From Chondromyces sp. (GTDB taxonomy: Bacteria > Acidobacteriota > Thermoanaerobaculia > Thermoanaerobaculales > Sulfomarinibacteraceae), in the NCBI GenBank assembly GCA_035466375.1, contig DATIVB010000056.1, positions 10,075 to 74,074 of the forward strand: a stretch of DNA of 64,000 nt, in the 5' to 3' direction. How positions within the stretch are numbered: the stretch's first letter is position 1; every line of letters begins with the position of its first letter. Shown piece after piece: positions 22,894-64,000 of this stretch. The notes under the pieces are model-generated. The model worked only from the letters and a program-made list of their open reading frames with translations, made no database searches and was not told where the DNA came from. The translations under genes and the position numbers were made by a program.

Positions 22894-23002
22894 TCCTGGC
22901 GACTCCTCGGTGGTTGAACTTCCGTGAGCAGGGTTGCGCGGCGTGGGCCCAACCTCGGCTCCCATTGTATCTGGGGTGCTTCCCGGCCCTGAGGGCCGAT
23001 GC

Positions 23003-25740: not shown

Positions 25741-26288
25741 CAGAGCTCGGGAGTGATCAATCCCAGGTTTCTGTCATCGCGACGGTACAGAACGTTGATC
25801 CGATCGGTGGTGGCATTGCGGAAGACCAGGAAGCCCTGCCCCAGGTCGTCGAGTTGGAGGACCGCCTCCTCGATCGACATCGGCTTGATGGCGATCGAGC
25901 TGCGCTCGACGATCCGCGGCTCGCCGGACGCGATCGACTCGCTCTCGAGGACGTCGAGCGTCCATCCCTGGTCGACCTTGGCTTCCGAGCCGGCGCGTTT
26001 CTTGTGGTCCTTGAGCCGCGCTTTGGCGCGCCGAGCCTGGATCTCCAGCTTGTCCACCGCCTCCTGAATGGCGGCCGTCATGTCCTTGTTCTGGGTCCTC
26101 GATTGGACGTCGAAGTCCTTGCCCTTGATCGACAGGTCGACGACGTGCAGGTGGCGCTCGAGGCCGACCTCCAGCCGGATGTCCAGGATGTCGTTGAAGT
26201 ACTTGGAGATCCTGGCCAGCTTCTTCTCGGCCAGCTGCTTCGATTGATCGGTCAGGACGACTTTTCGGGCGATGTAGTCGACTTTCAT
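25740..26288 (-). CDS. hpf: Ribosome hibernation promoting factor (long HPF)
   Basis: It has an N-terminal S30AE/YfiA domain (LTDQSKQLAEKKLARISKYF) and a C-terminal dimerisation domain (IAIKPMSIEEAVLQLDDLGQGFLVFRN). Confidence 0.9.
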   Translation of the reverse strand: MKVDYIARKVVLTDQSKQLAEKKLARISKYFNDILDIRLEVGLERHLHVVDLSIKGKDFDVQSRTQNKDMTAAIQEAVDKLEIQARRAKARLKDHKKRAGSEAKVDQGWTLDVLESESIASGEPRIVERSSIAIKPMSIEEAVLQLDDLGQGFLVFRNATTDRINVLYRRDDRNLGLITPEL

Positions 26289-26301
26289 GGCATTCTCCCG
26301 T

Positions 26302-27795: not shown

Positions 27796-27875
27796 GTTCG
27801 TATCAGCACCTCGTCAGCGACGGGCGACCGTGTCGCGCTTCTCGGGACCCGGCGGCGACCTCGAGCCTTCGCGGC

Positions 27876-28610
27876 TCAGAGTCTGAAGTCCTCGCCGAGG
27901 TAGATTCGACGCACATCCAGGTTTTCAGACAGATCGACCGGCTCGCCCGTAGCAAAAATCTTGCCGTCTTTGATTATATAGGCGCGATCCGTGATCTTCA
28001 ATGTCTCGCGAACGTTGTGATCCGTAATTAAAACACCTATACCCAATGACTTGAGCCTTCGAATGATGCGCTGGAGGTCGAGCACCGCGAGCGGGTCGAT
28101 GCCGGCGAAGGGCTCGTCGAGGAGAATGAAGGTCGGTTCGGTGGCCAGCGCGCGCGCGACCTCGAGCCGCCGGCGTTCGCCGCCGGAGAGGGTCTCGGCG
28201 CGCTGCCCGTGCAGGTTGGCGAGGCCGAAGTCCTCGAGCAGGTTCCGGATCCTGCGGTGAGCCTCCTTGGCATCGACGCCGAGCGCCTCGAGGATCAGCC
28301 AGATGTTGTCCTCCACCGTCAGGCGCCGGAACGAGCTCGGCTCCTGCGCCAGGTACGAGACACCCATCCGGGCCCTGCGGTACATGGGCTCGTGCGTGAT
28401 CTCGCGGTCGCCGAGGATGACCCGGCCCTCGTCGGGGCGCACCAATCCGACCATCATGTAGAAGGTGGTCGTCTTGCCTGCGCCGTTGGGCCCCAGCAGC
28501 CCGACGATTTCTCCCGGCGCGATGTCGAGGGTGATGTCGTCGACCACCCAGCGCCCGCGGTAGGCCTTGCGCAAGCCCTTCGCCGCCAGGTCGAGCGCTT
28601 TCGGGCTCAA
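27876..28610 (-). CDS. lptB: LPS export ABC transporter ATP-binding protein LptB
   Basis: The TTG start at 28610 forms a TTGA overlap with the upstream stop. Motifs are [31 protein letters not shown] and [12 protein letters not shown]. The longer 27876-29132 ORF is not supported upstream of the TTG. Confidence 0.9.
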
Positions 28611-30559
28611 GGCCGCTCCTCCGGGAAGTAGATGGTCTCGGTCCCTCCGGTGACCGAGACCGTACCATCGGCCTGATTCCAGGTCAACGAAGACCCCGAG
28701 ACCTCGTTGCCGCGGGGGTCGGCGATCTTCACCGGCGAGCCGGTCACCGTCACCAGCTGGGTGCTGGTCTCGCGCCGCGCGAACTGCCCGGTCATGCGAC
28801 GCCCCGTCTCCAGGATGACGATCTCCACCGCCCCGACAGCCTCCACCGCCGCGATGTCGTCGTTGTCGTCGAAGAAAATGCTCAGCTCGGCCGCAGCCAG
28901 CGTGTGCTCCGGGTCCGAGTACCGGACGTTGCCGCGGTACACCGCCGAGGCCACGGCCTGGTCGTAGTCGAGCGACCTCGCCACCACCACGACGTCCGCG
29001 CCGGGCTCGCCCTCGACCCCGAACTCGGCGGCCGGAAAGGTCGTTCGAACGTGACCCGAGGCGCGCAGGCTCACCGGATCGGCGTGGTGGAGGACCACGT
29101 CGTCGGCGAGCAGCAGGCGGTGCCCTTGCCACAGTCGGGCCGATCCGCTCAGGTGGTAGACCGACCCTTCCTCCGTCACCTCGAGTGTGTCGCTGGCGAA
29201 GTGCGCGGGCTGGCCGGCGGCCGCGTCGGCGCCGCCCACCAGTGACACGTCGCGAATCTCGCCCTGCACGTTGCCGCGGGCCTCGGACCTCCCCTCACGG
29301 TTGAAGAGCTGCGCCTGATCGCAGCTCAGCCGCCCCCGCTCGGACGTCAGCAGCACCCGTTCCGGTCCGGTGGGGTCGCCGTGCAGCATGACCAGGCCGG
29401 CCTGCGGCGCCATGCGGGCCCGGTGCCCCCTCGCCTCCACTCCCTCGCTGCGGACCATGACGTTGCGCAGCAGCTCCACGTCCGTCGCGCGGCCGTCGGC
29501 GAACCACACCCGGGCGGCGACGGACTCTCCCAGTCGGACCGCGCCTTCGGTCGGGACCTCTCGAATGCAGACGCCTCCCTCCGCACGCAGGTTCACGAGC
29601 CCTTCCGGGCCCAGCGCTGCGCGCATGACCCAGCTCTCCAGCTCGCGCTCGAAGTACCCCTCGCCGCCGACGAAGCGCACCCGGACCCAGGGTCCGGTGG
29701 TCGTGGCGTCCACCTGCCAACGCCCGGCGCCGTCGCGGACGGCGACGACACGCTCCATCCAGGCCTCGACTTCGCCGCCGCCGTCCGGCGTCAGCGAGCG
29801 GGCCTCGACCCCGCCCGACATCTCCACCCTCCGCGGCGGGCCTTCGCCGGGCTCGAGGTCCGCCGCCATCGCCGGCGCCTCGATCCGGGTGTCCGCGAAG
29901 CGGAGCTCGGCGCCCTCGGGGAAGGCCACCCTGCCCCGCGTGCGCTCGTAGACAGTCCGCGGAGCGATCAGGGTGGCGCCTTCTCCGGTGTGGAGGGTCG
30001 TCCCCCCGTCGAGGACGATCTCATCCCGCTCGAGGTCGTAGCTGGCGCTCCCCGCCCGGCCGAAGGTCGCGCCGGAGACGAATCGCACCTCTGCGCCGGC
30101 CGTGAAGACGCGTGAGCTCGCGGAGAAGCTGCCGGCGTCGGTGGTCAGGCTGGCGCCGCTCGGCAGCTCCAGTCGCACGCTCCCCGCGAGCTCCGCGTCA
30201 CGCGTCTGAATGTTGAACCGGGCGCCGTCGCAGGTCAGGACCGGCCCCGGCTCACCGTCGCGGTAGAACTGCAGGCGCACGCCCTCGATCTCGTGCCAGC
30301 CGGATGACAGGCCGAGGGTCCGCTTGGACAGCAGCCGGAAGATCTCGCGCCCCGCGACCCGCTCGACGAACTCGAACCCCGTGTAGATGCCGACCGCCCG
30401 GTCGCCGTCGCCGTTGCTGATCTGGTCGCCGTCGAGCGCTTCGATGGGCGTCTTCAGCAGCCGCAGGCGGTCGGCGATGAAGCCGCCGAGGGTCAGGAGG
30501 AGGAGGACGATCCCGGCCGCGCTCACCCTGCGGATCCAACGCCGCGATGCGACGCTCAT
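28607..30559 (-). CDS. Membrane-anchored periplasmic protein with LptC-like and OstA/LptA-like beta-jellyroll modules (650 aa)
   Basis: It has an N-terminal anchor ([15 protein letters not shown]) followed by repeated beta-strand-rich segments. The C-terminal part ([26 protein letters not shown]...[36 protein letters not shown]) resembles LptA/OstA_N. Its position directly upstream of lptB-rpoN matches the usual lptC-lptA slot. Confidence 0.6.
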
Positions 30560-30647
30560 CGCCGCCGCTCCGAGGGCGTCCGGGCCCCGCCGAGTGCGCG
30601 CCGCGTCGGGGACTGGAGCTCACTGGAACGGTGCATCGACTCGCCGA

Positions 30648-44651: not shown

Positions 44652-46649
<1,998 letters not shown>

Positions 46650-46706
46650 GACTCATCCTCCTCGCTAGATACACCCCATTGTGAACCTAGCCTCCGTAAT
46701 TCCATG

Positions 46707-51879: not shown

Positions 51880-53821
51880 CCCCCAGCACTTTCCTCTGAT
51901 AATGCTCCAGAGACGGGAACGACTGCGGCGGGCGCCCGCGGGCGGCCTCCTGGTTCGGCATGGGGATCGCCGAGGAGGCGTCGATCACGCGGGTCACGAA
52001 GGTCCAGAAGGACACCATGCGGTCTTCGCCACCGACCATGGTGCGCGGATCGAAGCTGTCGCTGAAGATGCGGGTCGCCGGGAGCTTGCCGTTGCACTGC
52101 CCCGGCTGCTCGAACAGGAGGTCGACGAGCGCGACCGGCTTCCGGCCGTGGCGCGCGAGCAGCGCGGCCGCCACCGCCTGCACGGAACGGAGGTCGATGG
52201 ACTGGAAGTGGCCGCTGCAGTCGACGGTCAGCTCGTGACCCTTGATGGCGAACGGCACCACGGTCGTCACCTGGATGCCCGCCATCTTGTCGGCTCCCGG
52301 CGGCAGCTCCGGTCGGACCCGTACGTCGGTGACGGTCGCAGCGGACGGCACGAGGCGGCGCTTGTCGATGCCCCAGAGGGCCACCTCGAGCTCCGGTCGG
52401 GCATCGCCCGGGACCTCCGGGTTGGCCAGCGCCGCCCGCACCATCGCCTCGGCGCTCGGCGCCTCGATGGCGAGACCGAGCCTGGCCATGCGCAGCAAAA
52501 CGGCGCCCGGCGTCGAGTCATCGGTGCGCCGCAGCGCCAGCTCGAGGGTCTCGACCGCCGACATCACGCGCTGTGCATCGTCGAGGATCTCCGCGATGCG
52601 CACCGCGAGCAGAGGATCGACCTCGGCCTCGGGATCGTGGATCAGCACCTCCTCCCAGTGCGAGATCACGAAGCCCTGATCGCCCGTCCGCACCGCCCCG
52701 GTGATGGCGCGCAGGATCGGCTCCACCCCGCGATGCGCCTGACCGCGGGTGACAGCGAGGTTCCACAGCGCCATCGCGGCGTCGACGTTGTCCGGATCTG
52801 CGGCGATCTCGCGTTCCAACGAAGCCAGTGCCCAGTCAAGGTCACCCTTTCCGGCGCGCGCGAGCGCCGTCTCGACGGCGACGTTGTCGAGCATCGTGAC
52901 CTTGGACTCGATGGCGGGGTGCAGGTAGCGTTCCTCGATCCGGAAGTGCGCCATCGCCCAGGCGAACACGACCCCGAAGGCGAAGCCCCAGACGTGCGCC
53001 CAGAATGCGACCCCTCCCGTAGCTCCCTCCGGGAGTCCGGCATCCATGAAATGCGCCGAAGCCAGCTGAATGGCGAACCACATCGGGAACAGCACCCAGG
53101 CCGGCGCCTGCAGGGGCCCGATCGGGACCGCGACCCACAACACGAATCGGATGCGGCTGCGCAGGTAGCGGACCAGAAAGGCCCCCATCACGCCGGCCAC
53201 CGCGCCCGAGGCCCCGACGAGCGGCAGCTCGAGCTCCGGGTACCGGACCGCGAACATGACACCGGCGACGGCGCCGGCGGCGAGGTAGAACCCGGTGAAC
53301 AGGGGCCGCCCCCACACATCCTCGACGAAGGGCGCGACGACGAAGAGCATCAGCAGATTGAAGAGCAGGTGCAGCCAACCCGAGTGGAGGAACGGATAGG
53401 TGAAGAGGTTCGCCGCCTTCAATTCCGCCGGGACCAATCCGAAGCGGCTGAGCATGGACCGCTGCAGGCTCTGGTGATAGCCCTCCACCATGATGTCGAA
53501 GCGCCGCTGTTGGTGGGCCAGGACCGCCTCGTCCCGCGGGGCCTGAGGCCCCACTTGCCGCATGTACTCGGTGAGGGCTTCCGCCTCCTCGACGCCGAAA
53601 TCGCTCGCGAAAATTCGCTGGAAGCGCGGGTCGATCTCCAGGTAGGGGTGCTGGGTGAAGTAGCCGAGCGCCTGGTGGAGACGGAAGAAGCTCTCCATCT
53701 GGTTGTGATGCTCGCCCGGCGCCATCAACACGAACACGACGACGCAGATGGCCATGATCGCGAAGGTCACCCACGGCAGCCGTCGCACGCTCGTCTGCTC
53801 GTGCCCGAGAGGAATGATCAT
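51869..53821 (-). CDS. Rhomboid-family intramembrane serine protease with a ~350-aa C-terminal soluble extension
   Basis: The rhomboid core has HSGWLHLLFNLLML, GASGAVAGVMGAFLV (GxSG) and AFWAHVWGFAFG (catalytic His). The C-terminal half has TPR-like helices and then an unrecognised domain. Confidence 0.8.
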   Translation of the reverse strand: MIIPLGHEQTSVRRLPWVTFAIMAICVVVFVLMAPGEHHNQMESFFRLHQALGYFTQHPYLEIDPRFQRIFASDFGVEEAEALTEYMRQVGPQAPRDEAVLAHQQRRFDIMVEGYHQSLQRSMLSRFGLVPAELKAANLFTYPFLHSGWLHLLFNLLMLFVVAPFVEDVWGRPLFTGFYLAAGAVAGVMFAVRYPELELPLVGASGAVAGVMGAFLVRYLRSRIRFVLWVAVPIGPLQAPAWVLFPMWFAIQLASAHFMDAGLPEGATGGVAFWAHVWGFAFGVVFAWAMAHFRIEERYLHPAIESKVTMLDNVAVETALARAGKGDLDWALASLEREIAADPDNVDAAMALWNLAVTRGQAHRGVEPILRAITGAVRTGDQGFVISHWEEVLIHDPEAEVDPLLAVRIAEILDDAQRVMSAVETLELALRRTDDSTPGAVLLRMARLGLAIEAPSAEAMVRAALANPEVPGDARPELEVALWGIDKRRLVPSAATVTDVRVRPELPPGADKMAGIQVTTVVPFAIKGHELTVDCSGHFQSIDLRSVQAVAAALLARHGRKPVALVDLLFEQPGQCNGKLPATRIFSDSFDPRTMVGGEDRMVSFWTFVTRVIDASSAIPMPNQEAARGRPPQSFPSLEHYQRKVLGVTD

Positions 53822-53860
53822 CGGCTCACCGGTTTCCCTCCGCGGTTATTATAGCTTTCG

Positions 53861-54601
53861 ATGTCAGTCGCTGCCGTCATCCTCGTGGAACCCTCGCAGG
53901 CGGGAAACCTCGGGGCCGTCATGCGGGTCGCCGCCAACTTCGGCATACCCCGCCTCGAGCTGGTGAGGCCGGCGGTCGACTTCGAGGACGAAGAGGTTCG
54001 GAACTGGGCCTGCGGCGGCGACCGGCGGCTCGAGTGCCGCTCATGGGGCAGTCTCGCCGAGGCGGCTGCCTCCTACCGCACCCTCGCCGCCGCGGCCTCC
54101 GGCCGTGGGCGCCTGCGGCTGCCGGCGCTGGCCCCGCGGCAGGCGGTCACGCTGCTGGCCGACCGCGGCCTCGAAAGCACGGCGCTGGTGTTCGGCAACG
54201 AGACCCGCGGACTCTGCCGCGACGACATCGACCGCTGCGACCTGGTCATCACCATCCCGACCGAGCCGGACTTTCCCGTCCTCAACCTCGCACAGGCGGT
54301 CGCGATCCTGGCCGCCGAGGCCCACGCCGTCGACCCCGATCTCCGGCAGAGCGCGCACGAGCCCGCGACCCTGAAGATGGTCGAAGGGCTCATGGCCCAC
54401 CTTCAGAGCAGCCTGCTGCGGATCGGCTTCCTCGATCCCGCGAACCCGCAGCGCATCTTGCGCAAGCTGCGGCGCCTGCTCGGACGCGCCGGGGTCACCG
54501 CCGAAGAGGTCAAGATCCTGCGCGGCGTCTGCCGTCAGATCGAGTGGGCCGCCGGCGCGAAACCGCCTCCGATCGAAGGACCCGGGGCCGATCCCGACTG
54601 A
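53861..54601 (+). CDS. SpoU/TrmH-family RNA 2'-O-methyltransferase (TrmJ-like)
   Basis: VILVEPSQAGNLGAVMRVAANFG, LVFGNETRGL and IPTEPDFPVLNLAQAVAI match the SpoU/TrmH pattern. Confidence 0.85.
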   Translation: MSVAAVILVEPSQAGNLGAVMRVAANFGIPRLELVRPAVDFEDEEVRNWACGGDRRLECRSWGSLAEAAASYRTLAAAASGRGRLRLPALAPRQAVTLLADRGLESTALVFGNETRGLCRDDIDRCDLVITIPTEPDFPVLNLAQAVAILAAEAHAVDPDLRQSAHEPATLKMVEGLMAHLQSSLLRIGFLDPANPQRILRKLRRLLGRAGVTAEEVKILRGVCRQIEWAAGAKPPPIEGPGADPD

Positions 54602-54663
54602 CACCGCTCGGTCCGGACCCGCCTGCGACCGGGCGCACCGCCTGCCCCGCCGACGTCGCGACT

Positions 54664-55917
54664 CTATCTCGCTCCGATCTCGCGCCGCAGGCGTTCGGTC
54701 AGCTCGAGCAGGACCGGGTCGGTCGGATGGCGGTCGAGGGCCAGCGAGACCGTGATCGCGGCTTCGGCGTACCGGCCCTGGCGAATCTGCAAGGCCACCA
54801 GGCGCGCCGCCGCAGCGGAGGAATCCGGGTCGACCTCGACCGCCCTCTCGAGGGCCAGCAGCGCATCGGCCGGCCGCCCGGCCTGCTCGGCGACGCGCGC
54901 GATCCGCGTCAACAGACCGACATCCGTCGGCGACATCCCCCAGGCTCGGCGCAAGTGGCCGAGGGCGGCCTCGAAATCCCCACGGCTCTCGGCAAGCGCG
55001 GCGAGAGCCATCCATGGGTGCGGCGATTCGGGCTCGAGCGCGAGCGCCCGGTCGGCGGCGGCGAGCGCCCCGGCGCCGTCGCCCTCGAGCTCGCGCACCA
55101 GCGCCAGCATCGACCATGCTCGCGAGCGCAGTCCCCGCGGGCAGGCCCGGTTGGCGATGACCCCGTCGAGCCGGTGCGCCGCGCCGGCGCGATCGCCGTC
55201 GGCCAGGGCCCACCGCGCCCTCTCGAGCTGCACTTCCGGATGTTGGTCGTACGCGGCCAGAATGTCCTCCGCCCCCGCAGCGTCTCCCGCCGTCCGCAGT
55301 GCGCGCGCGAGCGCCAGAGCGTTGTCGACCCGGCGCCGCGGGTAATACCGGTCCCGGAGCTCGAGCGCCCGCACGCGGACCCGGGCCTCCTGCTCCGCGA
55401 TCAGCTGCACCGGCGGGCTGCGGAGTCCGGGCGCGATCGCTTCGGCGACCGCCAGCGCCTCGAGAGCTTCCGCGAGCTCGCCCTGCATCAGCAGCACCGC
55501 GGCCGCCATGCGCTGGAGGCGCGCCGACGTCGGGCTCCTGGCGAGGGCCGCGTCGAGGTGGTCTCCGGCCTCGTTCACGCGCCCGCGGACGAGCTCGGCT
55601 CGGGCGAGGTCCGTGAAACCTCCCGGATGCGCAGGAAGCCAGGCCCGCTGCAGGCCGCCGAAGCGATCGAGCAGAGCCGCGAGATTCGGCCGCGGCACCG
55701 ACTCGAGAGCGGCCGTGGGCAGTCGCCGGGCCCGCGCGACCATCGGCGGCAGGGCCGCGAGCCCCGACTCGCGGAGGCGACCGGCAGCGGCGGCCGGATT
55801 GACGCGGGCCAGGGCCTGCACCTGCTGCCACCACCACCAACCCGCGGTCTCGGCGGCCATCACCGCGACCGCCGCCGACGCCAGGATGACCCGCCCTCGG
55901 TAGCCCCTCCCGGTCAC
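54664..55917 (-). CDS. Membrane-anchored TPR repeat protein
   Basis: The GTG at 55917 forms a GTGA overlap with the murB stop. There is an N-terminal anchor (ILASAAVAVMAAETAGWWWW) followed by multiple TPR-like units. The upstream part of the 659-aa ORF overlaps murB and is not supported. Confidence 0.7.
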   Translation of the reverse strand: MTGRGYRGRVILASAAVAVMAAETAGWWWWQQVQALARVNPAAAAGRLRESGLAALPPMVARARRLPTAALESVPRPNLAALLDRFGGLQRAWLPAHPGGFTDLARAELVRGRVNEAGDHLDAALARSPTSARLQRMAAAVLLMQGELAEALEALAVAEAIAPGLRSPPVQLIAEQEARVRVRALELRDRYYPRRRVDNALALARALRTAGDAAGAEDILAAYDQHPEVQLERARWALADGDRAGAAHRLDGVIANRACPRGLRSRAWSMLALVRELEGDGAGALAAADRALALEPESPHPWMALAALAESRGDFEAALGHLRRAWGMSPTDVGLLTRIARVAEQAGRPADALLALERAVEVDPDSSAAAARLVALQIRQGRYAEAAITVSLALDRHPTDPVLLELTERLRREIGAR

Positions 55918-56825
55918 GGGTCGATCGCTCCGCCATCCTCGTCGACGAACCGCAAGGCCGAGCGAAGTTCGCGGCCGGTCAAGCGAACCGCCTCCTCCTT
56001 CACCGCGCGTGTGAGCTCCAGCACGTCGGTTGCCCGCGTGGACCTGGAGGTGCAGACCCGGTTGACGTGGTCCGCCGACAGCTGGGCGCCGCCCACCGCC
56101 AGCCCCCGGCGTCCCATGCCGGCGACCAGATCCTCGGCCCGACTCCCCGGCTCGACGATGACGAAGGGCCATGTCGAGCGCGGCTCTCGGATCGAAGCCG
56201 GCCGCGGGGTCTCGTCCGTTCCCTTCGGCGCCTTTGGCGGCGGGACGCGGGAAAGCTGCAGCCGCGCCCGCACGACCACCCCCCGGCTGAGGTCGAATCC
56301 CGATCCGGAAGCCCCGGCGTCGCCGAAGGCAACCCGCTCGACCACCCGCCCGGGCCGCGCGACATCCATCCACTTGATGAGGCCGTTGAAGGGGTGGTTT
56401 TCTCGCAGCGAGGTCTCGACTGCCCCTCCGATCGTCCCCGGAGCGGCAACCGAGGTGTCGAAGGCCGGGAGCCCGGTTCGTGCCGCGGCGCGACACACCT
56501 GTGCCAGGTTGGCACCGCCACCGGCCACCGCTCCTACGAGGTCGAGCTCCCAGAGACCCAGGGTTCCGCTGAGGTTCAGCAGTGGGACCCGCAGGCCCCG
56601 GTCGGGGGGGACGAGACGGCTGCCGGAGCCGAGAACCAGCCAACGCCGGCCATGGGTCGCGAGCAGGTCGAGAGCGCGCTGAAGCCCGTCAGCACTGCGA
56701 CATCGGATCAGCAGGTCGGCCGGACCTCCGACCCCGAGAGCGGTCCACGCGCGGAGATCGACCCGCTCGTGAACCTCCGGATCACCGCCCTGCTGCACGC
56801 TCCGCAGATCGGATTTGAGGCTCAC
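55914..56825 (-). CDS. murB: UDP-N-acetylenolpyruvoylglucosamine reductase
   Basis: GTG start at 56825. It has the FAD-binding pattern TALGVGGPADLL...WLVLGSGSRLV, a GTIGGAV motif, and a C-terminal MurB domain (GGAQLSADHVNRVCT). Confidence 0.9.
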   Translation of the reverse strand: MSLKSDLRSVQQGGDPEVHERVDLRAWTALGVGGPADLLIRCRSADGLQRALDLLATHGRRWLVLGSGSRLVPPDRGLRVPLLNLSGTLGLWELDLVGAVAGGGANLAQVCRAAARTGLPAFDTSVAAPGTIGGAVETSLRENHPFNGLIKWMDVARPGRVVERVAFGDAGASGSGFDLSRGVVVRARLQLSRVPPPKAPKGTDETPRPASIREPRSTWPFVIVEPGSRAEDLVAGMGRRGLAVGGAQLSADHVNRVCTSRSTRATDVLELTRAVKEEAVRLTGRELRSALRFVDEDGGAIDP

Positions 56826-56849
56826 GCGGCTGATCCGCCCGATTTCACG

Positions 56850-56927
56850 CTACTCCCTGGAATACTGGCACGCGCCTTGCTTATTGTCCGGGTGCCGGGC
56901 ACACGACGATCCGGTACACGACATCAT
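56850..56927 (-). CDS. Possible 25-codon ORF (MMSCTGSSCARHPDNKQGACQYSRE) behind a 16-nt polypurine SD. Speculative.
   Basis: Manual reverse-complement translation. AGGAGGAAGGAGGAGG lies immediately upstream of tandem ATGs (56927, 56924). Third-position GC is lower than in neighbouring genes. It is entirely antisense to the candidate sRNA. Confidence 0.3.
   Translation of the reverse strand: MMSCTGSSCARHPDNKQGACQYSRE
56866..56881 (+). promoter_or_regulatory. Sigma-54 (-24/-12) promoter: cTGGCACGcgccTTGCT
   Basis: It matches YTGGCACG-N4-TTGCW with the GG and GC elements at the canonical spacing. It is located in the bEBP-murB intergenic gap on the strand opposite to both genes. Confidence 0.7.
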
Positions 56928-56969
56928 ACCTCCTCCTTCCTCCTGCGGGCTTTCGGGCCCGCCTTTTTT
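56892..56969 (+). ncRNA. Candidate sigma-54-dependent small RNA (~78 nt) with a CU-rich single-stranded tract
   Basis: It is bounded by the sigma-54 promoter (predicted +1 near 56892) and an intrinsic terminator. It contains a 5' hairpin (56894-56915) and ACCUCCUCCUUCCUCCU (56928-44). There is no plausible plus-strand ORF before the terminator. Confidence 0.55.
56945..56969 (+). terminator. Rho-independent terminator (GCGGGC-UUUCGG-GCCCGC followed by C-UUUUUU)
   Basis: A 6-bp all-GC stem and 6-nt loop are followed by a T6 run. The T-run is on the plus strand only. Confidence 0.7.
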
Positions 56970-57051
56970 ATGGGGATCCGGATGGGGCGTCGTCCACGGA
57001 CCGGGAGGTTCTCGCGCACTCGACGTCGGCGACCGATTCGAAAGCTCCGCC

Positions 57052-60000
57052 TCACCCGGTGTCCTTGAGGCCGAGATTCCGGAGGTGGTAGAGCAGCGCC
57101 TGGCGAGAGATGCCGAGCTCGCGCGCGGTTGCGCTGCGGTTGCCCCCGTTGCGCTGCAGCGCGGCGCTCAGGAAGCGACGGCGGAACTCGCGCTGCGCCA
57201 CGTCCCAGGAGCCCCCGACTTCGGAGCTCGGGGCGGCGATCGGCAGGTACTCGGGGCGGACCGTCTCCCCCTGGGCCCGCACCATCGCCACCTCCACCAC
57301 CTGCCGCAGCTCGCGGACATTTCCCGGCCAGTGGTAACGGCGGAGCAGGGCCTCGGACTCGGGGCTCCAGGTCGGCCTCGGCAGCCCGTGGCGGGCGTGG
57401 GCCTCGCGTTCGAAGAGCTCCCGCAACAGCGGAATGTCCTCGGTGCGGGCGCGCAGCGGGGGGATCGGCACCGCCGGAGCCGCGATGCGGAAGTAGAGGT
57501 CGCGCCGGAAGTCGCCTTCCCGGATCTGCCGGTCCAGATCGCGGTGGGTCGCCGACACGAACCGCACGTCGACCTCCCTGCTGACGTGGGTACCGACCGC
57601 TCGCACCTCGCGAGACTCGATGAAGCGCAGGAGCTTGACCTGGAGCGCGGGCTCCAGGTCGCCGATCTCGTCGAGAAACAGGGTGCCTCCGTCGGCTGCG
57701 ATCGCGAGACCGCGCCGCGACCGGTCGGCGCCCGTGTAGGCCCCTTTCACCGAACCGAAGAGCTCCGCCTCGAGCAGGGTCGCGGGAATCGCCGCGACGT
57801 TGACCGCGATGAAGGCGCCCTTTCTCCGCGAAAGCGTGTGCAGCGCCCGCGCCGCAACCTCCTTGCCGACCCCAGTCTCTCCCAACAGAAGCACGGGCAG
57901 GTGGGTTGGCCCGAGCTCGCGCAGCTCGCGCCGAAGCGCGCGCGCCGCATCGGACACACCGAAGAAACCGGTCTCGTCGGCGCCGCTGTCCGCCGTCTCC
58001 GGCCGCCTCGGCAGCACGAGATCGAGCACGCCGAGCAGGAGGCGCCCTGAGGGGCCCTCGTCCAGAATGCCCCCGAGCGGCACGGCTACCAGTCGTCCGT
58101 GGCGCACCTCACCGCCGGGCGCGCCGTGTCCGTGCCGCCAGACCGGGGTCCCGTCGACGGCATCCCGGATCTCCAACCCGGTAACTCCGAGACTCGCCTC
58201 GAGCCTTTCGACGTCCTGCGGATCGAGGGTCTCGAGGCCGCGCGCCTCGACGACCCGGGCGAGGACGGAGACCACGGCGCCGGCCCGCTCCCCGAGGCCG
58301 CTCAGGGACTCCGCCCAGCCCTCGAGACCCGAGCGGCGAAGCAGCGCCGTGAGACGCGACCGAAGCTCCGCGGACACCGGGAATCTCTCCCCCCGCACGC
58401 GTTCACCGAGCGCGAGCGCGAAACCGTCTCCGAGGCGGTCCGCCCGGAGGCCGAGCATCGCCGCCTTCGTTGCCTCGGGCCCGGAACCGCGTACGAGCTC
58501 CGCCGCGAGCGACACGCCCCACGCATCCGGTTCGGCCGACTCTACGGGCTCACCGGCGACGGCTGTTGCGAGGGCCCTCCAGCTCTCGCCCTCCTGCCCC
58601 GCACGCGCCAGCAGGCTTCTCGCGCGCCGCGGCTCGCCGTCGAGGAGGGCGCGGGCACCGCGCAGCAATGCGAGGCCCTCCGCGAAACGCGGGTCTTCGG
58701 CGTCGATCTCGTGCTCGAAATCCTCCAGGCGTCGACGGAACAGGGGCTCGTCGCCGGTCGCGAGAGCAAGCCGCGCGCATTCCCCGAGCACGAACGGCTC
58801 CCGGGGCTCGTCGGCCGCCAGGTCGCCCAGGCGCTCGGAGGCCCGAGGCACCCGCAGCTGGTCCACGTCGGCGACCGCGAGGTTGAAGAGCGGCAGCGAG
58901 GTTCGATGGCGAAAACCGGCCGCGCGCAGCAGGTGGAACGCACGCAGGTGGTGGCCTTCCGCCTCCCGGCTCCGCCCTTCGCTCAGCGCCACCGCCCCGA
59001 GGTCGAGCTCGACCATGCCCCGCAGTCCGGGGCCGACAACGTCCCGCGCGACCACCTCGAGGAGGCGCCGCGCCGTGCGCGGCTTGCCGCAGTCGAGATG
59101 CCAGAGCGCCCGGCGGTGCGCGAGCTGGGCGCGGAGGCCGGGGTGTCCGGCCGTGGCAAGGTGCCGCCAGGCGGGGTCGTCGAGCCGTTCGGGCGTGAGG
59201 CGGTAGGCGAGCTCGATTTCGAGACGGCGGGGCAGCAGCTCCTCGAGGCGGCGACGGCAGCTGTCGATCATCGCAGCCGCCTCGGAGGCAGCCGAGCGCT
59301 GCGAGCGACCGATGTCGTCGAGCACCAGAGCGGCCGTCTCCGCCGCCGCCCGCGGGTTCTCCGCCGCATCGCGGGGCCCCGGCAGGCGCCGTGGCACGGC
59401 GGGTTTCGGATCGAGGGCTTCGCACCACAGCTCGGCGGCCACCCGACTCTTTTCAGACAGTGGCGCCAGGGCGGAGCGTGCGCCGAAAAGATCCAGTACG
59501 GCAAGACAGGCCTCCGCCAGCAGCAGCTGCACGGCTTCGCCGAGAGCGCCGCTGGCGACCATCGACAACAGCTCGCGCACCGGAATCGCTTCGAGGCGGT
59601 CCAATCCCGACCTCGCCCAGGCCTCGAGCTCCGCGGTGTCGCCGTTGCCGAGGGCGGTGTGCAGGAGGTGCAGCGGATCATCGGGCGGATAGAGCCCGGC
59701 CACCTTCAGGTGCCGCGGGTCGGTCTCGAGGGGCACCGGCTCGGGCAGGCGCCAGCGCGGTCCGGCCTCCACCACAGCCGACCTCCGCCGCTCGACCTCG
59801 AGCTGAGCGGGAGCCAATCCGCCCTGCAGCGCGATGAAACCCGGAGGCAGTCCGTCGGGCGACAGCGCTAACCAGCTCGTCAGCGCGCTGCCGGTGAGGC
59901 CGCGACCCGCCGTGCTGCGGCCGGAACGGCGCGGCGCCAGGGCGCCGCGGAGACTCTCGGTCAGGGCCATCCGGTCGGAATCCTCGAACGGTGCGAAGCG

Positions 60001-60957
60001 GTCCTGTCGCCCCTCGACGAATCTCCGCGCGACATCGGGCGGCAACCCGGCCACCGCGAGATGCCCGGTCAGAGACCCGCGGCCCCTCGGCGGTGGCTCC
60101 GCCCGCCAACCACGCGGGAAAAGGCCGATCCCGACGGCGCTGCAACCGCTGCGGGCGGCCCACCGCGCCATCGAGTTGAGCTCCCCGTTCGACAGCCGGC
60201 CGACGATGATCACCGTGCCGTCGCCACGGACTGCCGGAACCGGCGGCGGGCCCGACGCGCCGTCCTCGGCCGGCCACACCCAGGCCCGCCCGCCGCGCCT
60301 GCGGAGCTCGCACCACAACGCCGCCCCCAGGCGCCGTGCAGCCGTCGGCACGGGCACCCGCCACAGCGCGATCAAGCCCTCCTCCGGCGGTGGCAACGGG
60401 TTCCATCTCAGCGCCCACAGCGCCCGGGCGGTTTCGTGGTCGAGCGGCTGGTGCAGCTCCCGGAGCTGGCGCGCAATCAGCGTATCGAAGGACGACAGGC
60501 CCGGGCCCGGCCGTTCGACCTCGAGCTCGGACGTGGAAAGGCCGACAGCGTCGCCGATCCGTCCCATCACCGCCGACCACGCCGCCTCCGTTGCGGCCTC
60601 GCCGCCGCCGAGACGGTCGACCAGTTGCGACAGCGGCAGAGGATAGCGCGCGAAGACCGGACGGATGCCGTCGGGCGTGCGGAACAGGCAATCTCCCGAG
60701 AATGCGGATCGAGGCAGCCAGAGGTCGAACTCGGCGAGCAGCGCGGCGGCCGCGGTCATCCGGGCCGCGGCGCGGTAGCGCTCGCGCTTCGGCAGCGAGG
60801 CCGGGCGCACCGCCGACGACAGCTCCCCCGCCCCCTCGCGAACGGCCCCCGTAATCTCCGGCTCGGGGAGCGTCGGGTGCTCGACGAGCAGTGCCGCCGG
60901 GTGCGGGATCCGCACGCCTGCCCCTACGCCGGCGGGAGCTCCGTGAGCCGGGCCCAC
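57052..60957 (-). CDS. Sigma-54-dependent transcriptional activator (bEBP, Fis-type HTH) with a very large (~850 aa) unrecognised N-terminal region
   Basis: The C-terminal AAA+ sigma-54 interaction domain reads VLLLGETGVGKEVAARALH, EAELFGSVKGAYTGA, TLFLDEIGDL, VRFVSATHRDL and WPGNVRELRQVV. The Fis-type HTH is GGNRSATARELGISRQALLYHLR. The start is uncertain: the ORF maximum overlaps the aroA end, and the GTG at 60915 or ATG at 60759 are possible. Confidence 0.85.
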   Translation of the reverse strand: MGPAHGAPAGVGAGVRIPHPAALLVEHPTLPEPEITGAVREGAGELSSAVRPASLPKRERYRAAARMTAAAALLAEFDLWLPRSAFSGDCLFRTPDGIRPVFARYPLPLSQLVDRLGGGEAATEAAWSAVMGRIGDAVGLSTSELEVERPGPGLSSFDTLIARQLRELHQPLDHETARALWALRWNPLPPPEEGLIALWRVPVPTAARRLGAALWCELRRRGGRAWVWPAEDGASGPPPVPAVRGDGTVIIVGRLSNGELNSMARWAARSGCSAVGIGLFPRGWRAEPPPRGRGSLTGHLAVAGLPPDVARRFVEGRQDRFAPFEDSDRMALTESLRGALAPRRSGRSTAGRGLTGSALTSWLALSPDGLPPGFIALQGGLAPAQLEVERRRSAVVEAGPRWRLPEPVPLETDPRHLKVAGLYPPDDPLHLLHTALGNGDTAELEAWARSGLDRLEAIPVRELLSMVASGALGEAVQLLLAEACLAVLDLFGARSALAPLSEKSRVAAELWCEALDPKPAVPRRLPGPRDAAENPRAAAETAALVLDDIGRSQRSAASEAAAMIDSCRRRLEELLPRRLEIELAYRLTPERLDDPAWRHLATAGHPGLRAQLAHRRALWHLDCGKPRTARRLLEVVARDVVGPGLRGMVELDLGAVALSEGRSREAEGHHLRAFHLLRAAGFRHRTSLPLFNLAVADVDQLRVPRASERLGDLAADEPREPFVLGECARLALATGDEPLFRRRLEDFEHEIDAEDPRFAEGLALLRGARALLDGEPRRARSLLARAGQEGESWRALATAVAGEPVESAEPDAWGVSLAAELVRGSGPEATKAAMLGLRADRLGDGFALALGERVRGERFPVSAELRSRLTALLRRSGLEGWAESLSGLGERAGAVVSVLARVVEARGLETLDPQDVERLEASLGVTGLEIRDAVDGTPVWRHGHGAPGGEVRHGRLVAVPLGGILDEGPSGRLLLGVLDLVLPRRPETADSGADETGFFGVSDAARALRRELRELGPTHLPVLLLGETGVGKEVAARALHTLSRRKGAFIAVNVAAIPATLLEAELFGSVKGAYTGADRSRRGLAIAADGGTLFLDEIGDLEPALQVKLLRFIESREVRAVGTHVSREVDVRFVSATHRDLDRQIREGDFRRDLYFRIAAPAVPIPPLRARTEDIPLLRELFEREAHARHGLPRPTWSPESEALLRRYHWPGNVRELRQVVEVAMVRAQGETVRPEYLPIAAPSSEVGGSWDVAQREFRRRFLSAALQRNGGNRSATARELGISRQALLYHLRNLGLKDTG

Positions 60958-62198
60958 ATGTCCCAGAAATCGGGGAAGGACTTGCCGACGCAGCTGCCGT
61001 CGTCGAGCGCGAGCGTGCCGCCTCCGAGCGCCGCGACCGCCATCGCCATCGCGATGCGGTGGTCACCGGCCGCGACCACCGGGCGCGGCGGCCCGGCGAT
61101 GCGCTCAAGACTGGAGACCACCACCAGGGTGGAATTCGTCACCCCGAGTTCGGCGCCCAACCGACCCAGGTTCTCGACCATCGTCCGCAGGCGGTCGCTC
61201 TCCTTGTAGGCGAGGTGTTCGAGGCCGCTCATCCTCGAGCCCGGCGGCACGCACGCGGCGACGGCTGCAAGCGCCGGAAAGAGGTCGGGCGTGTGACCAA
61301 GATCGGCCACGATCGGGCGCGTCAGAGGTCCGTGGGCCACGAGCCGGTCGCCCTCCCAGCCGAGGTCGAGCCCCGCCCCGCCGAGAATCTCGACGATCGC
61401 GCGGTCTCCCTGGCGGCTCGCGCGATGGAGCGGACCGACGGCGATGCGGCCCCCGGCGACGGCGACCGCCGCGAGCGCGAAGGCGGCGGCCGACCAGTCG
61501 CCCTCGACCGTGACTGCGGCCGGGCGCAGCGAGCCAGGCGGCACCGTCCAATGCCGCCGGTCCGCGCTCGCGAGGACCCCGCTGCCGAATGCTCGCAGCA
61601 CGTCCTCGGTCAGGTCGAGGTAGGGCGCCGACGGCAGAGGGCCCTCCACCACGAGATCGAGGCCCCTCCGCATCAAGGGCGCGGCGAGCAGCAGCGACGA
61701 CACGAACTGCGAGGAGGACTCAGGCCGCAGGGTGAGGGCGCCCCCCTCGAGCTCGGCACCTTCCACGGTAACCGGCAGGCGACCGCCGGTGCTCCTGATC
61801 CGGGCCCCGAGGGACGCCAGGGCATCACAGAGAGGCGACATCGGACGCTCGCGGAGGCGGGCGCTTCCGGTGATCGTCGCGCCCCCGGGCATGACGCACA
61901 GAAGGCCGAGAAGCAGCCGCGCTCCGGTTCCCGAGTCCGCCAGGTCGAGAACCGGAGGCTCGTCGGGGATCGTGCGCCCGCCCACCTCGACCGCCGAACC
62001 CCACTCGAGGTGCCAGCCCGCGGTGCGGAGCGCCTCCGCGAGGACCCGGGTGTCGTGGCAGTCCAGCGGCCGCTCGATGCGGCCGCCGCCGGAAGCCGCG
62101 GCCGCGATCAGGGCACGGTTGGTGATGCTCTTCGAGGTCGGCACCTCGACGTCTGCCGCGAGGCCCGACAGCGGCCCGGGCAGCACTCGGGGCTTCAC
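60924..62198 (-). CDS. aroA: 3-phosphoshikimate 1-carboxyvinyltransferase (EPSP synthase)
   Basis: The GTG at 62198 forms a GTGA overlap with the upstream stop. Motifs are VPTSKSITNRALIAAA, DCHDTRVLAEAL, GNSG-like DSGTGARLLLG and KESDRL. Confidence 0.93.
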   Translation of the reverse strand: MKPRVLPGPLSGLAADVEVPTSKSITNRALIAAAASGGGRIERPLDCHDTRVLAEALRTAGWHLEWGSAVEVGGRTIPDEPPVLDLADSGTGARLLLGLLCVMPGGATITGSARLRERPMSPLCDALASLGARIRSTGGRLPVTVEGAELEGGALTLRPESSSQFVSSLLLAAPLMRRGLDLVVEGPLPSAPYLDLTEDVLRAFGSGVLASADRRHWTVPPGSLRPAAVTVEGDWSAAAFALAAVAVAGGRIAVGPLHRASRQGDRAIVEILGGAGLDLGWEGDRLVAHGPLTRPIVADLGHTPDLFPALAAVAACVPPGSRMSGLEHLAYKESDRLRTMVENLGRLGAELGVTNSTLVVVSSLERIAGPPRPVVAAGDHRIAMAMAVAALGGGTLALDDGSCVGKSFPDFWDMWARLTELPPA

Positions 62199-62977
62199 GG
62201 CCCGGCCCCGACCGGTTCCAGCGGTACGTGGCCGTCGATCTCGAGCGGCAGTGGTTCGAATTCCGTGCCGACCAGGTTCATCTCCCCCGCCGCACCAACG
62301 ACCAGGCTGGTCCGGGTCTCGAGCCACGCCGGCATCACCAGGGCCATGCGCTCGCCGCGCCTGCACATCCACGGCGAGTGGAAGTGACCCCACAGCAGCA
62401 CGTCCACCCCGTCCGCCCAGGCCCTTTCGGCGCTGCGCTCGAGGTCCTGAACCGGCTTCATGGATCGGAAGCGTTGGTTCGTCTTGGCCAGATGACTCTC
62501 CATGTGGCGGACGATGGCCACCGCCAGGCCGCGCGGTAAGAGCCTGGCCCACAGGCGGGCGACGCCGGACTTCGAGACCGTCGACCAGAATCGGTACGCC
62601 AGGTCCCTGCGGTTGACGAGATCGCCGTGGACCAGCAGAAAGTGCCTGCCGCCGGAAGAAAAGCTCCTGCTGCGTCCGCTCCAGTCGAGCTCGGCTGCGA
62701 GCTCGGGCTCGTCGAGGAAGAAGTCGCGGTTGCCCTCCACCACGCCGATCTGAACGCCCTGCGTCCGCAGCTCCCGCCACACGACCAGCACCTCATACAC
62801 CGACGAGGTCCAGAACTTCGACATGCCGATCAGGTACTGGAAGGCGTCGCCGAGGTAGATGATCTCGCCGATGCCGCGCCGGGCGGCGAGCCGGAGATGG
62901 GCGTTCATGGCGGCCGCGTCGTCGTCCCCTTGGCCGACGTGCGAGTCTGCGATGATGAGACGTTGCACGCCGGCCAT
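62195..62977 (-). CDS. Calcineurin-like metallophosphoesterase (LpxH-like UDP-2,3-diacylglucosamine hydrolase family)
   Basis: ATG at 62977 (MAGVQRLIIADSHVG). Motifs are YLGDAFQYL, VEGNRDFF, LVHGDL and WGHFH. The upstream part of the 306-aa ORF lies in repeat sequence. Confidence 0.75.
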   Translation of the reverse strand: MAGVQRLIIADSHVGQGDDDAAAMNAHLRLAARRGIGEIIYLGDAFQYLIGMSKFWTSSVYEVLVVWRELRTQGVQIGVVEGNRDFFLDEPELAAELDWSGRSRSFSSGGRHFLLVHGDLVNRRDLAYRFWSTVSKSGVARLWARLLPRGLAVAIVRHMESHLAKTNQRFRSMKPVQDLERSAERAWADGVDVLLWGHFHSPWMCRRGERMALVMPAWLETRTSLVVGAAGEMNLVGTEFEPLPLEIDGHVPLEPVGAGP

Positions 62978-62992
62978 GGTAGCGCACGCCAG

Positions 62993-63219
62993 AACGTCGT
63001 GACACGTTCGAACGTTCAAACGTTGCACGTTCCGCCCACCCACCCAAAACCACAGAGGCACAGAGGGCACAGAGGGAACACAGAGCCGCCCACCCACCCA
63101 GAACCACGAAGACACCAGGTCACGAAGAAATCACGAAGGCCGCCCGCCCGCCCCAAAACGCAAAGGCGCAGAGGCGCAAAGCCCGACCAGCCCTCCACCC
63201 ACGCAAAGACGCTGCAGCG
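62993..63219. repeat. Left arm of a large modular inverted-repeat element. It has four to five blocks of 7-8-bp tandem repeats (ACGTTC-, CACAGAGG-, CACGAAG-, GCGCAAAG/GCGCAGAG-type) separated by C-tracts (CCGCCCACCCACCC and similar).
   Basis: Read directly. The C-tracts are at 63032-63045, 63086-63099, 63140-63154 and 63182-63200. The blocks are imperfect reverse complements, in mirrored order, of those at 63591-63849. Confidence 0.85.
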
Positions 63220-63590
63220 AGCCACGAGAGTTCAGCGGTGTGACGAGGTTTCCGGCCGTCGGACGGCCGGAAACCGCCGGGACGGGACTCCGTGTCGAAC
63301 CCGAGCGTTCGCCCCGGAGTCCCGCCCAGACGGCCCGCGCTCTCGAAGAGCGCAGGCCTCGCCAGTTGTCATCTTCAATCACGAGGATGGAGATGGGACC
63401 TTCTCTACCATTGACAGTGGGAAGGGCGAGAGGCAGAACCGCCGTGCCCCGGGCCCGGCGGCCGGTGAGAAGCGCGGCGACGACGAACGCTCGCGTTCGG
63501 AGCTCGCCGCGCTTATCACCGGCGGCAGGCGATCCGATCGCCTGCCGTTCTGCCGCCACACTGCGGAAGAGCGCCCCTCCCGGCACCAGT
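63220..63590. other. Hairpin-rich core between the two arms (possible structured RNA or DNA element)
   Basis: There is a perfect 12-bp stem GGTTTCCGGCCG/CGGCCGGAAACC (63247-63275). A 9-bp stem GGGACTCCG/CGGAGTCCC has a nested GAAC/GTTC stem (63284-63323). Further stems are GCGCTC/GAGCGC (63337-63353), CGAACGC/GCGTTCG (63484-63499) and the 11-bp GGCAGGCGATC/GATCGCCTGCC (63524-63546). Confidence 0.5.
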
Positions 63591-63867
63591 CCCTTTGCGT
63601 CTTTGCATCTTTGCGCCTTTGCGTCTTCTCGTTTTCGGGTGGGCGGGTGGCCTTCGTGAATCCTTTGTGACTTGGTGCCTTCGTGTTTCTGGGTGGGTGG
63701 GCGGCTCTGCGACTCTGCGCCTCTGCGCCTCTGCGTTTCCGGGTGGGTGGGGGGCCTTCGTGATTTCTTCGTGTCTTCGTGCCTTCGTGGTTGCGACGTG
63801 GGCGGATGGGTGGGAACGTGCAACGTTCGAACGTTCGAACGTTCCAACGATGGCGGGCGGGCGGGTG
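63591..63867. repeat. Right arm of the large modular inverted-repeat element. It has CTTTGCG-, CTTCGTG-, CTCTGCG-, CTTCGTG- and AACGTTCG-type tandem repeats separated by five G3N1 tracts.
   Basis: The G-tracts are GGGTGGGCGGGTGG (63637-50), GGGTGGGTGGGCGG (63691-704), GGGTGGGTGGGGGG (63741-54), GGGCGGATGGGTGGG (63800-14) and GGCGGGCGGGCGGGTG (63852-67). Their starts are spaced 50-59 bp apart. Confidence 0.85.
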
Positions 63868-63897
63868 CTCCCTGCTCCCCGGTTCGACGCTTCGGCT

Positions 63898-63906
63898 TGC
63901 TAGAAT
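63898..63906 (+). promoter_or_regulatory. Extended -10 promoter motif TGCTAGAAT
   Basis: TGn + TAGAAT lies 52 nt upstream of the ATG at 63958. It is the same motif as at 1891-1899 and lies directly downstream of the repeat element. Confidence 0.4.
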
Positions 63907-63957
63907 CCCGAAACCGGCGGCGCCGATCGCCGTACGAGTGCCAGGGAGGAAGCCGCA

Positions 63958-64000
63958 ATGAACGCACGTTTCTCGATTGTCATTCTTGCTGCCCTGCTCG
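63958..64000 (+). CDS. 5' end of a gene encoding a probable secreted or membrane protein (truncated by the window)
   Basis: The ATG is preceded by GGGAGGAAG. MNARFSIVILAALL looks like a signal peptide. Only 14 codons are visible. Confidence 0.5.
   Translation, partial: MNARFSIVILAALL

Follow-up and report, generated by a model that had tools for sequence, protein, structure and literature searches.

A predicted small RNA gene beside a sigma-54 activator gene

The DNA analysed is a stretch of 64,000 nucleotides (the window) from contig DATIVB010000056.1 of the Acidobacteriota assembly GCA_035466375.1 (Chondromyces sp.), with a G+C content of 70%. Four features follow one another along its minus strand: aroA (EPSP synthase), the gene for a 1301-aa sigma-54 activator (a bacterial enhancer-binding protein, bEBP), the element studied here, and the gene for a MurB-like flavin adenine dinucleotide (FAD) protein. 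The element is a predicted small RNA (sRNA) of ∼78 nt, encoded on the plus strand at 56892-56969 (+), with a predicted 5′ end good to +/-2 nt and a 3′ end expected within a run of uracils. An earlier reading of the bare sequence (the original prediction) had proposed that an undescribed sRNA is transcribed from a sigma-54 promoter beside the gene of its probable activator. The conservation and covariation described below, and the lack of any Rfam or literature match, uphold that proposal, and we consider it very likely that a conserved and previously undescribed sRNA gene with a sigma-54 promoter exists at this locus.

No Rfam family reached its gathering score anywhere in the window, Qrr, GlmY/GlmZ, CrcZ, Pxr and csRNA included. 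A permissive Rfam scan of 56780-57060 returned just SorX, at chance level (E = 3.9; 11.6 bits against a gathering score of 46.6). Searches of the full-text literature found nothing on the sRNA among sigma-54-dependent sRNAs or in Thermoanaerobaculia and Acidobacteria; its pyrimidine tract matched unrelated human sequences only.

Promoter, fold and terminator

The sigma-54 promoter lies at 56866-56881 (+). It consists of a -24 box, TGGCACG (56866-56872), a 4-nt variable spacer (cgcc) and a -12 box, TTGCT (56877-56881), and it is an exact match to the consensus where the original prediction had claimed a near-consensus one. The GG and GC doublets are 12 nt apart within TGGCAC-N5-TTGCW, as in sigma-54 promoters. 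Only one zero-mismatch match to TGGCACG-N4-TTGCT was found in the window, and the runners-up have 2 mismatches and lack the GG or the GC; the other TGGCAC/GTGCCA sites, which by eye had seemed to lack a TTGC element, gave no further such match. The expected number of exact matches is 0.01 per window, and one match was reached in 1/100 shuffles. No sigma-70-like site was found at the sRNA locus in the window.

When 56892-56969 was folded, a 5′ hairpin (56892-56917), an unpaired region (56918-56944) and a terminator hairpin were obtained, with a minimum free energy of -25.4 kcal/mol (z = -2.4). The minus strand of the same region folded no better than shuffled sequences (z = 0.15). In the 5′ hairpin (+), GCCGGG (56894-56899) pairs with UCCGGU (56910-56915), and G-C and U-A pairs extend the stem in this genome. 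The intrinsic terminator (56945-56969, +) is a GC hairpin (56945-56962) followed by C and six uracils (56964-56969). A terminator scan of 52000-64000 found this hairpin with its CTTTTTT to be the only plus-strand terminator-like site. Folding and scan thus recover what the original prediction had described by eye, namely a GCCGGG/UCCGGU hairpin, an unpaired CU tract and a terminator with its T-run on the plus strand only. Four divergent representatives from the relatives described below gave an identical fold with the tract unpaired (z = -1.8 to -4.6). The element is a discrete non-coding unit with its own promoter and Rho-independent terminator at a fixed spacing, and its conserved secondary structure leaves the seed accessible.

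Conservation among relatives

Related loci were retrieved through the flanking proteins and never through the element, so that the element itself did not bias the sample. Scanning genomes with the MurB-like protein turned up one Thermoanaerobaculia metagenome-assembled genome (MAG), at 57% identity; its intergenic region has the same promoter, RNA body and terminator, and a 2-nt deletion that breaks a minus-strand mini open reading frame (ORF). Searching proteins gave >160 MurB-like homologues in Acidobacteriota, and a metagenome scan with the MurB-like alignment gave 67 loci. The sRNA unit is present, in one copy each, in all 64 of the 64 MurB-retrieved loci with enough upstream DNA, always on the strand opposite the MurB-like gene and ∼40 nt from its start. 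It was also found in three of three further loci fetched via MurB-like proteins and in three of four fetched via the N-termini of distant bEBPs (36-38% identity). The exception, L072, has the bEBP gene but no MurB-like gene, RNA or sigma-54 box, a case in nature of the RNA being lost along with the MurB-like gene. In L072 aroA is split and a truncated TPR gene stands in place of the MurB-like gene (L072:9800-10200).

In total ∼70 related sequences, mostly from uncultured Acidobacteriota (Thermoanaerobaculia), carry the sRNA almost letter for letter. The occurrence of promoter, RNA and terminator in all homologous MurB-like loci with enough DNA is decisive against chance. Conserved are both promoter boxes, the RNA from 12-14 nt after the -12 GC onwards, the terminator stem and the U-run. 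Drift is seen in the promoter spacer, in the 12-15 nt that separate the -12 box from the RNA, in the terminator loop and in everything beyond the U-run. These limits match the promoter boxes, the RNA start and the U-run, which is the signature of a promoter and an RNA gene. Conservation of the TGGCAC-N5-TTGC box, hairpins and plus-strand U-run had been put forward with the original prediction as a check, and all are kept in the ∼70 relatives while spacer and flanks drift.

TGGCA, TTGC and the 12-nt distance from GG to GC are invariant in 53 distinct relatives, in an alignment where the selecting regular expression fixed some positions and the loci themselves were picked via proteins; spacer positions are mixed, and the family consensus is GGAAttTTGGCACGccGtTTGCTTaT. 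A TGGCA(C/T)-N5-TTGC box was found in 62 of the 64 MurB-retrieved loci and in all six RNA-bearing loci fetched later (L069-L071 and L073-L075). For six loci in which 10-21 kb around the bEBP gene was scanned, the sRNA promoter was the only sigma-54 box.

A covariance model (R1) built from 49 distinct homologues matched the window at 56889-56974 (+) with 93 bits (E = 5e-22), the only significant match with filters off. No second copy was detected by R1 over the window (filters off) and ∼390 kb of loci; additional paralogues of the Qrr kind were thus looked for there and discarded, and no copies were found in viral contigs, where phage-borne ones were sought.

Both helices are predicted by RNAalifold. 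Over 44-49 distinct sequences, 99.5% of the cells in the two helices pair, compared with 22-47% when the partners are slid, and compensatory changes occur in three pairs, so the covariation check proposed at the outset came out in favour of the RNA. In the 5′ hairpin (44 sequences, 99.2% of cells pairing), two pairs switch from G-U to G-C or A-U and a third from G-C to A-U or C-G; the loop, CACAC(A/G)ACGA, is conserved. Divergent lineages have GCCAGA/UCUGG or GCCAAGAG/CUCUGGC in place of GCCGGG/CCUGGU. In the terminator stem, G-C becomes A-U in 10-12 sequences and C-G becomes U-A in 4 sequences. The terminator loop is variable; in every homologue a U-run of 5-9 comes next, confined to the plus strand. 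At two pairs of the 5′ helix most sequences have G-U when read as the plus strand, where the minus strand would have A-C mismatches. The plus-strand-only U-run and these G-U pairs both point to the plus strand as that of the RNA.

Two structural variants were noted. A second long hairpin directly follows the U-run in L001:5800-5860 (-) and also in L003, L004, L020, L024, L048, L049 and L051; its flanks (a U-run and an A-run) can pair with one another, and its sequence differs between loci. In L060:1506-1588 (-), identical to L064, the RNA has the other 5′ hairpin (GCCAAGAG/CUCUGGC) and a shortened tract, and a palindrome found in the MurB-like gene of other loci (see below) is absent.

Minus-strand reading frames are not conserved

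The minus-strand ORF that begins at ATGATG ranges from 3 to 202 aa (3-202 aa) among relatives. Indels of 1-3 nt between GGUA and CAUCAU put the conserved bases into three frames on this strand (MMSCTRSLCAR, MMSYQVVVCPA and MMRLPGRCVPG), and the stop scatters from -98 to +497 relative to the aligned MurB-like start. The 25-aa ORF of the window (MMSCTGSSCARHPDNKQGACQYSRE, with a strong Shine–Dalgarno (SD) sequence) was rejected because neither its frame nor its length is conserved, and translational coupling of an upstream ORF (uORF) to the MurB-like gene was rejected on account of the scattered stops. The 3-nt periodicity that, in the original prediction, would have favoured this small ORF was not found. 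Given the same indels, plus-strand ORFs that cross the site would be unable to keep frame either.

Many public MurB-like proteins are annotated at 328-389 aa and have spurious N-terminal extensions (P0008, P0011, P0012, P0018, P0022, P0023, P0031, P0063, P0081 and P0107). These arise because gene callers translate across the strand opposite to the sRNA gene and promoter; the spurious N-termini read the promoter complement in differing frames (..NKQTACQ.. and ..SKRRAKF..).

An unpaired region with anti-Shine–Dalgarno repeats

The putative effector region is the ∼27 nt at 56918-56944 (+), unpaired in all predicted folds. It contains CAUCAU (56922-56927), complementary to AUG start codons, followed by the 17-nt tract ACCUCCUCCUUCCUCCU (56928-56944), in which a tandem UCCUCCU heptamer with ACC in front of it makes up three CCUCC anti-SD cores. 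CAU thus lies 5′ of the CCUCC cores, the order needed for pairing with an SD and its AUG. Among the 49 aligned sequences the tract is invariant in all but three distinct ones (L061, L060/L064 and L004), and it is kept even in lineages whose flanking proteins are 36-44% identical. CAUCAU is not universal: it differs in L059, L074 and L075, where the tract is unchanged.

The UCCUCCU heptamer (56931-56944) is both tandem and mirror-symmetric. The only substituted tract, in L061:109-193 (-), has four changes to C, exactly those (1 of 210 ways) that turn it into a perfect homopyrimidine mirror repeat of 21 nt. Chance, sequencing error or selection for triplex-prone symmetry could each account for it.

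The duplex of the sRNA with the opposite strand at its own locus is perfect (-59 kcal/mol). The best non-self duplex with the sRNA seed (GGGGGAGGAGGAGGUCAUCGUG) is at 7751-7790 (+), inside a coding region (-34 kcal/mol).

The adjacent activator and a candidate enhancer

The presumed activator is encoded at 57052-60957 (-). Its longest ORF is 1301 aa, with a start near 60915 suggested by homologues, and its Pfam domains are Sigma54_activat (1.9e-57), AAA_lid_14 and HTH_8. ORF map and domain scan agree with the original prediction that this is the only bEBP of the window: no other sigma-54 AAA+ domain was found there, and the ORF ends 83 nt from the sRNA U-run, in convergent orientation. A bEBP orthologue ends just before the RNA in every RNA-bearing locus with enough DNA. 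The protein family is clade-specific (∼86 proteins, mostly 1200-1340 aa).

No Pfam or PDB sequence match was found for the N-terminal 986 aa of the bEBP. A confident structure model of residues 1-986 (predicted local distance difference test, pLDDT, 85.7) combines a long TPR superhelix (∼480 aa) with an alpha/beta region and a small beta domain, and its fold matches TPR subunits of the anaphase-promoting complex (APC/C) and a STAND-TPR protein. As a pointer to what is sensed, the model was set aside: it suggests a TPR superhelix with a STAND-like N-terminal region and gives no clue to a ligand.

A perfect palindrome, GTGCCA-N3-TGGCAC (56501-56515), falls within the coding sequence of the MurB-like gene, 384 bp upstream of where the sRNA is predicted to start, and is the one exact copy in the window. 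All 58 main-clade loci with sequence for this site have it, in one and the same codon position and with invariant arms and a variable centre. Its synonymous third positions carry 1.5-1.8 bits, compared with 0.05-0.4 in nearby invariant Gly/Ala codons. It is degenerate or absent in the most divergent lineages. We take it as a candidate enhancer, that is, a possible activator-binding site; the alternative is a small hairpin in the mRNA. A candidate at the usual -100 to -170 (ATCCAC-N6-GTGGAT, in IHERVD codons) was rejected since its arms are not conserved as an inverted repeat. In the same gene, the Asp codon of an ERVDLRAW motif (56757-56759, -) is nearly always GAT (1.77 bits) despite the high G+C content, so that GATC or GATT is kept ∼130 bp upstream of the sRNA start.

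Neighbouring genes

The gene upstream of the bEBP gene is aroA and not murA (60924-62180, -; NCBIfam TIGR01356, 319 bits, above the cut-off). The aroA stop overlaps the bEBP start (ATGA) in relatives, and aroA and the bEBP gene therefore form one operon.

On the other side, the gene at 55914-56825 (-) has weak matches to Pfam FAD_binding_4 and MurB_C. Its earlier label, murB, was too confident. It is MurB-like, but its scores of 18-92 bits against the NCBIfam murB models are below all of their cut-offs (144-277 bits). A cell-wall theme (murA-bEBP-murB) was accordingly dropped. The start codon of the gene lies ∼41 nt upstream of the -24 box of the sRNA and has little or no SD of its own; in relatives, the gene is in an operon with an overlapping TPR gene. 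Given this start position, any MurB-like leader RNA that starts beyond 56969 would be fully antisense to the sRNA. The terminator scan found no minus-strand terminator between the bEBP gene and the sRNA element in the window.

The genome encodes both sigma-54 and the bEBP. As the original prediction had noted, rpoN is in the window (26302-27813, -; Pfam Sigma54_AID, Sigma54_CBD and Sigma54_DBD, E = 1e-16 to 1e-65), followed by hpf, ptsN and hprK. Its neighbourhood (20861-30619, -) is of the classic type, with LptA-like, rpoN, hpf, ptsN (EIIA-Ntr), hprK and ptsP (Enzyme I) genes. A ribosomal protein S1 gene lies at 44652-46652.

A model for the sRNA and its alternatives

Our preferred reading is an activator-driven sRNA that pairs with SD and AUG sequences in cis and/or in trans, to which as a whole we assign a probability of roughly 0.6. 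The original prediction had named both routes as possibilities: titration of SD sequences in trans, and an effect in cis on the bEBP-murB transcript. Sigma-54 RNA polymerase would bind the -24/-12 box at 56866-56881, and the adjacent 1301-aa TPR-containing enhancer-binding protein would open the complex, possibly from GTGCCA-N3-TGGCAC inside the MurB-like gene. Transcription would run from ∼56892 and stop at the hairpin and U-run at 56945-56969, giving an RNA with a protective 5′ hairpin, a ∼27-nt unpaired stretch and a terminator hairpin. CAUCAU-ACCUCCUCCUUCCUCCU, with its complementarity to SD and AUG, would pair with purine-rich translation-initiation regions and block ribosome loading; such pairing is, to judge from the tract, probably the specific mechanism. 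One target would necessarily be complementary, namely the leader of the MurB-like/TPR operon, provided that its mRNA starts upstream of the element, and a read-through aroA-bEBP transcript would be the likely source of that leader. The near-invariance of the 17-nt tract across deep lineages suggests additional partners in trans. As cis pairing needs no sequence invariance, the invariant tract argues for conserved trans partners, whether SD regions or a protein.

Several points weigh against this reading. Transcription of the sRNA is predicted from sequence features, and the link between activator and promoter is one of adjacency and synteny. At -384 the candidate enhancer is at an unusual distance, and the most divergent lineages lack it. 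In one distinct sequence (L060 = L064) the RNA has no canonical -24/-12 box upstream, perhaps through replacement of its promoter. The 64-kb window and the translation-initiation regions of neighbouring genes and syntenic loci yielded no convincing trans target. A purely cis-antisense role would not by itself explain the invariance of the tract, and the invariance could come from the purine strand.

A cis-antisense effect on read-through from aroA-bEBP to the MurB-like/TPR genes is plausible, given the automatic complementarity, the lack of a minus-strand terminator and the joint loss in L072. A minus-strand transcript may overlap the sRNA gene, which occupies the interval from the bEBP stop to the MurB-like start, an interval that holds no minus-strand terminator. 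The sRNA might then be a cis-antisense regulator only, pairing solely with this read-through or leader and having no trans targets. Pairing would trigger RNase III cleavage or occlude the leader, and convergent transcription or a parked sigma-54 closed complex would add interference. Its perfect complementarity to the opposite strand (-59 kcal/mol) fits this, as does the fixed position of the RNA gene relative to the start of the MurB-like gene: the -24 box is ∼40 nt from the start codon, and ATGATG is 101-109 nt from the aligned start, save in three distinct sequences (124-126 nt). L072, without both the MurB-like gene and the RNA, has kept its bEBP. However, such complementarity would hold whatever the sequence, which leaves the 17-nt invariance (with flanking proteins 36-44% identical) unexplained, and, depending on where the MurB-like mRNA starts, the leader may exclude the tract. 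We regard a role confined to cis as rather unlikely.

In a further variant the RNA would be a sigma-54-triggered mimic of the 3′ tail of 16S rRNA (UCCUCCU twice, preceded by AUCAUACC) that competes for SDs genome-wide or decoys a factor recognising the anti-SD. Translation would then be throttled globally, at a level set by a TPR-sensor activator, and the RNA would not be a regulator of a few mRNAs, but we think this improbable. Slightly more doubtful still is a sponge for a protein or ribosome factor (e.g. S1, an RNase or a toxin), for which the resemblance of tandem UCCUCCU to the 16S tail (AUCA..CCUCCU), the repeated short motif in an unpaired region and its extreme conservation would speak. 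The 5′ hairpin loop is conserved too, with no obvious role in pairing. Sponges of the CrcZ and CsrB types are longer and have more motif copies, whereas this RNA is short with 2-3 copies only; the idea names no candidate binding protein, and the order of CAU and CCUCC is exactly the one that SD-AUG pairing needs. CrcZ is nevertheless a precedent, as a sigma-54/bEBP-dependent sponge encoded beside its activator (PMC5113210).

A functional minus strand is very unlikely. The site would be a MurB-like operon leader, with a strong SD (AGGAGGAAGGAGGAGG) and AUGAUG as a standby site or uORF, or with a TATGAT -10 box, and the sigma-54 box would be incidental or a roadblock site. A purine tract followed by AUGAUG would be an extremely strong ribosome-loading site beside a start codon with little or no SD, and the minus-strand consensus folds moderately well (z = -2.4); but two correctly spaced promoter boxes with a drifting spacer in 53 distinct sequences, the plus-strand U-run after the hairpin, the A-C mismatches in helix 1, the varying length, frame and stop of the uORF (-98 to +497) and the minus-strand fold of the window region (z = 0.15) all contradict it. 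A more exotic variant of the 16S mimic would have the homopyrimidine mirror repeat enable triplex formation between the RNA and its own purine-pyrimidine DNA tract.

Judging by Rfam and the literature searched, no regulatory RNA has yet been described for Thermoanaerobaculia and no sigma-54/bEBP-dependent sRNA for Acidobacteriota, so that this one would be the first of each. Its promoter is a first candidate output for an orphan family of giant TPR-bEBPs (∼86 proteins). The locus makes a clean test case: it has a single promoter and a single RNA, an anti-SD tract whose 17 nt are invariant, and a candidate enhancer in the synonymous sites of a neighbouring gene. The sRNA gene also accounts for the misannotated N-terminal extensions of public MurB-like proteins, and R1 allows the sRNA to be annotated in MAGs.

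Comparison with known systems

GlmY, whose gene neighbours the glrK-glrR activator operon, is transcribed from overlapping sigma-70 and sigma-54 promoters and acts by protein mimicry (RapZ). It shares its place beside activator genes with the RNA here, for which sigma-54 dependence is predicted; that of GlmY is established in Enterobacteriaceae (PMC3162934). It differs in its overlapping promoters, no sigma-70-like site having been found at the sRNA locus in the window. An apparent cell-wall link to GlmY dissolved because the upstream gene is aroA.

An sRNA beside its own sigma-54 activator is already known as a layout. CrcZ acts via A-rich motifs. As here, pxr in Myxococcus lies immediately beside an activator gene (nla19) and has its own -24/-12 promoter (PMC5568312). 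The same is true of crcZ, next to cbrB in Pseudomonas, which is co-transcribed with cbrB and hence co-directional, and whose RNA antagonises Hfq/Crc (PMC5113210). Both genes are downstream of the activator gene, in contrast to the convergent arrangement here, and neither RNA has a CU tract or gave an Rfam match in the window; Pxr has three stem-loops.

In the Qrr RNAs of Vibrio the seed is exposed; qrr1 adjoins luxO, and the activator mRNA is subject to feedback by the RNAs. LuxO sites resemble GTGCCA-N3-TGGCAC in being short palindromes around a 3-nt centre. Qrr transcription needs sigma-54 and the bEBP LuxO, and the RNAs act post-transcriptionally, according to a preprint (bioRxiv 10.1101/2021.07.01.450815); a like dependence is predicted for the sRNA here. 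There is no Rfam homology, however, and no anti-SD repeat makes up the Qrr seed. Unlike the response regulator LuxO, the activator here has, in the model, a ∼1000-aa TPR/STAND-like sensor, and its gene is convergent with an sRNA gene that is antisense to a neighbour's leader.

The streptococcal csRNAs are similar in size to the sRNA here. Their promoters depend on CiaR and not on sigma-54 and a bEBP, and they usually occur in several copies at variable loci, whereas we find a single copy per locus, fixed antisense to one leader. They share no sequence or Rfam similarity with this RNA, in which the anti-SD is tandemly repeated. The likeness is one of architecture: in csRNAs, as here, two stem-loops flank an unpaired region that carries anti-AUG and anti-SD sequences, with CAU 5′ of a CCUCC-type anti-SD, a design read as blocking translation-initiation regions (PMC3091779).

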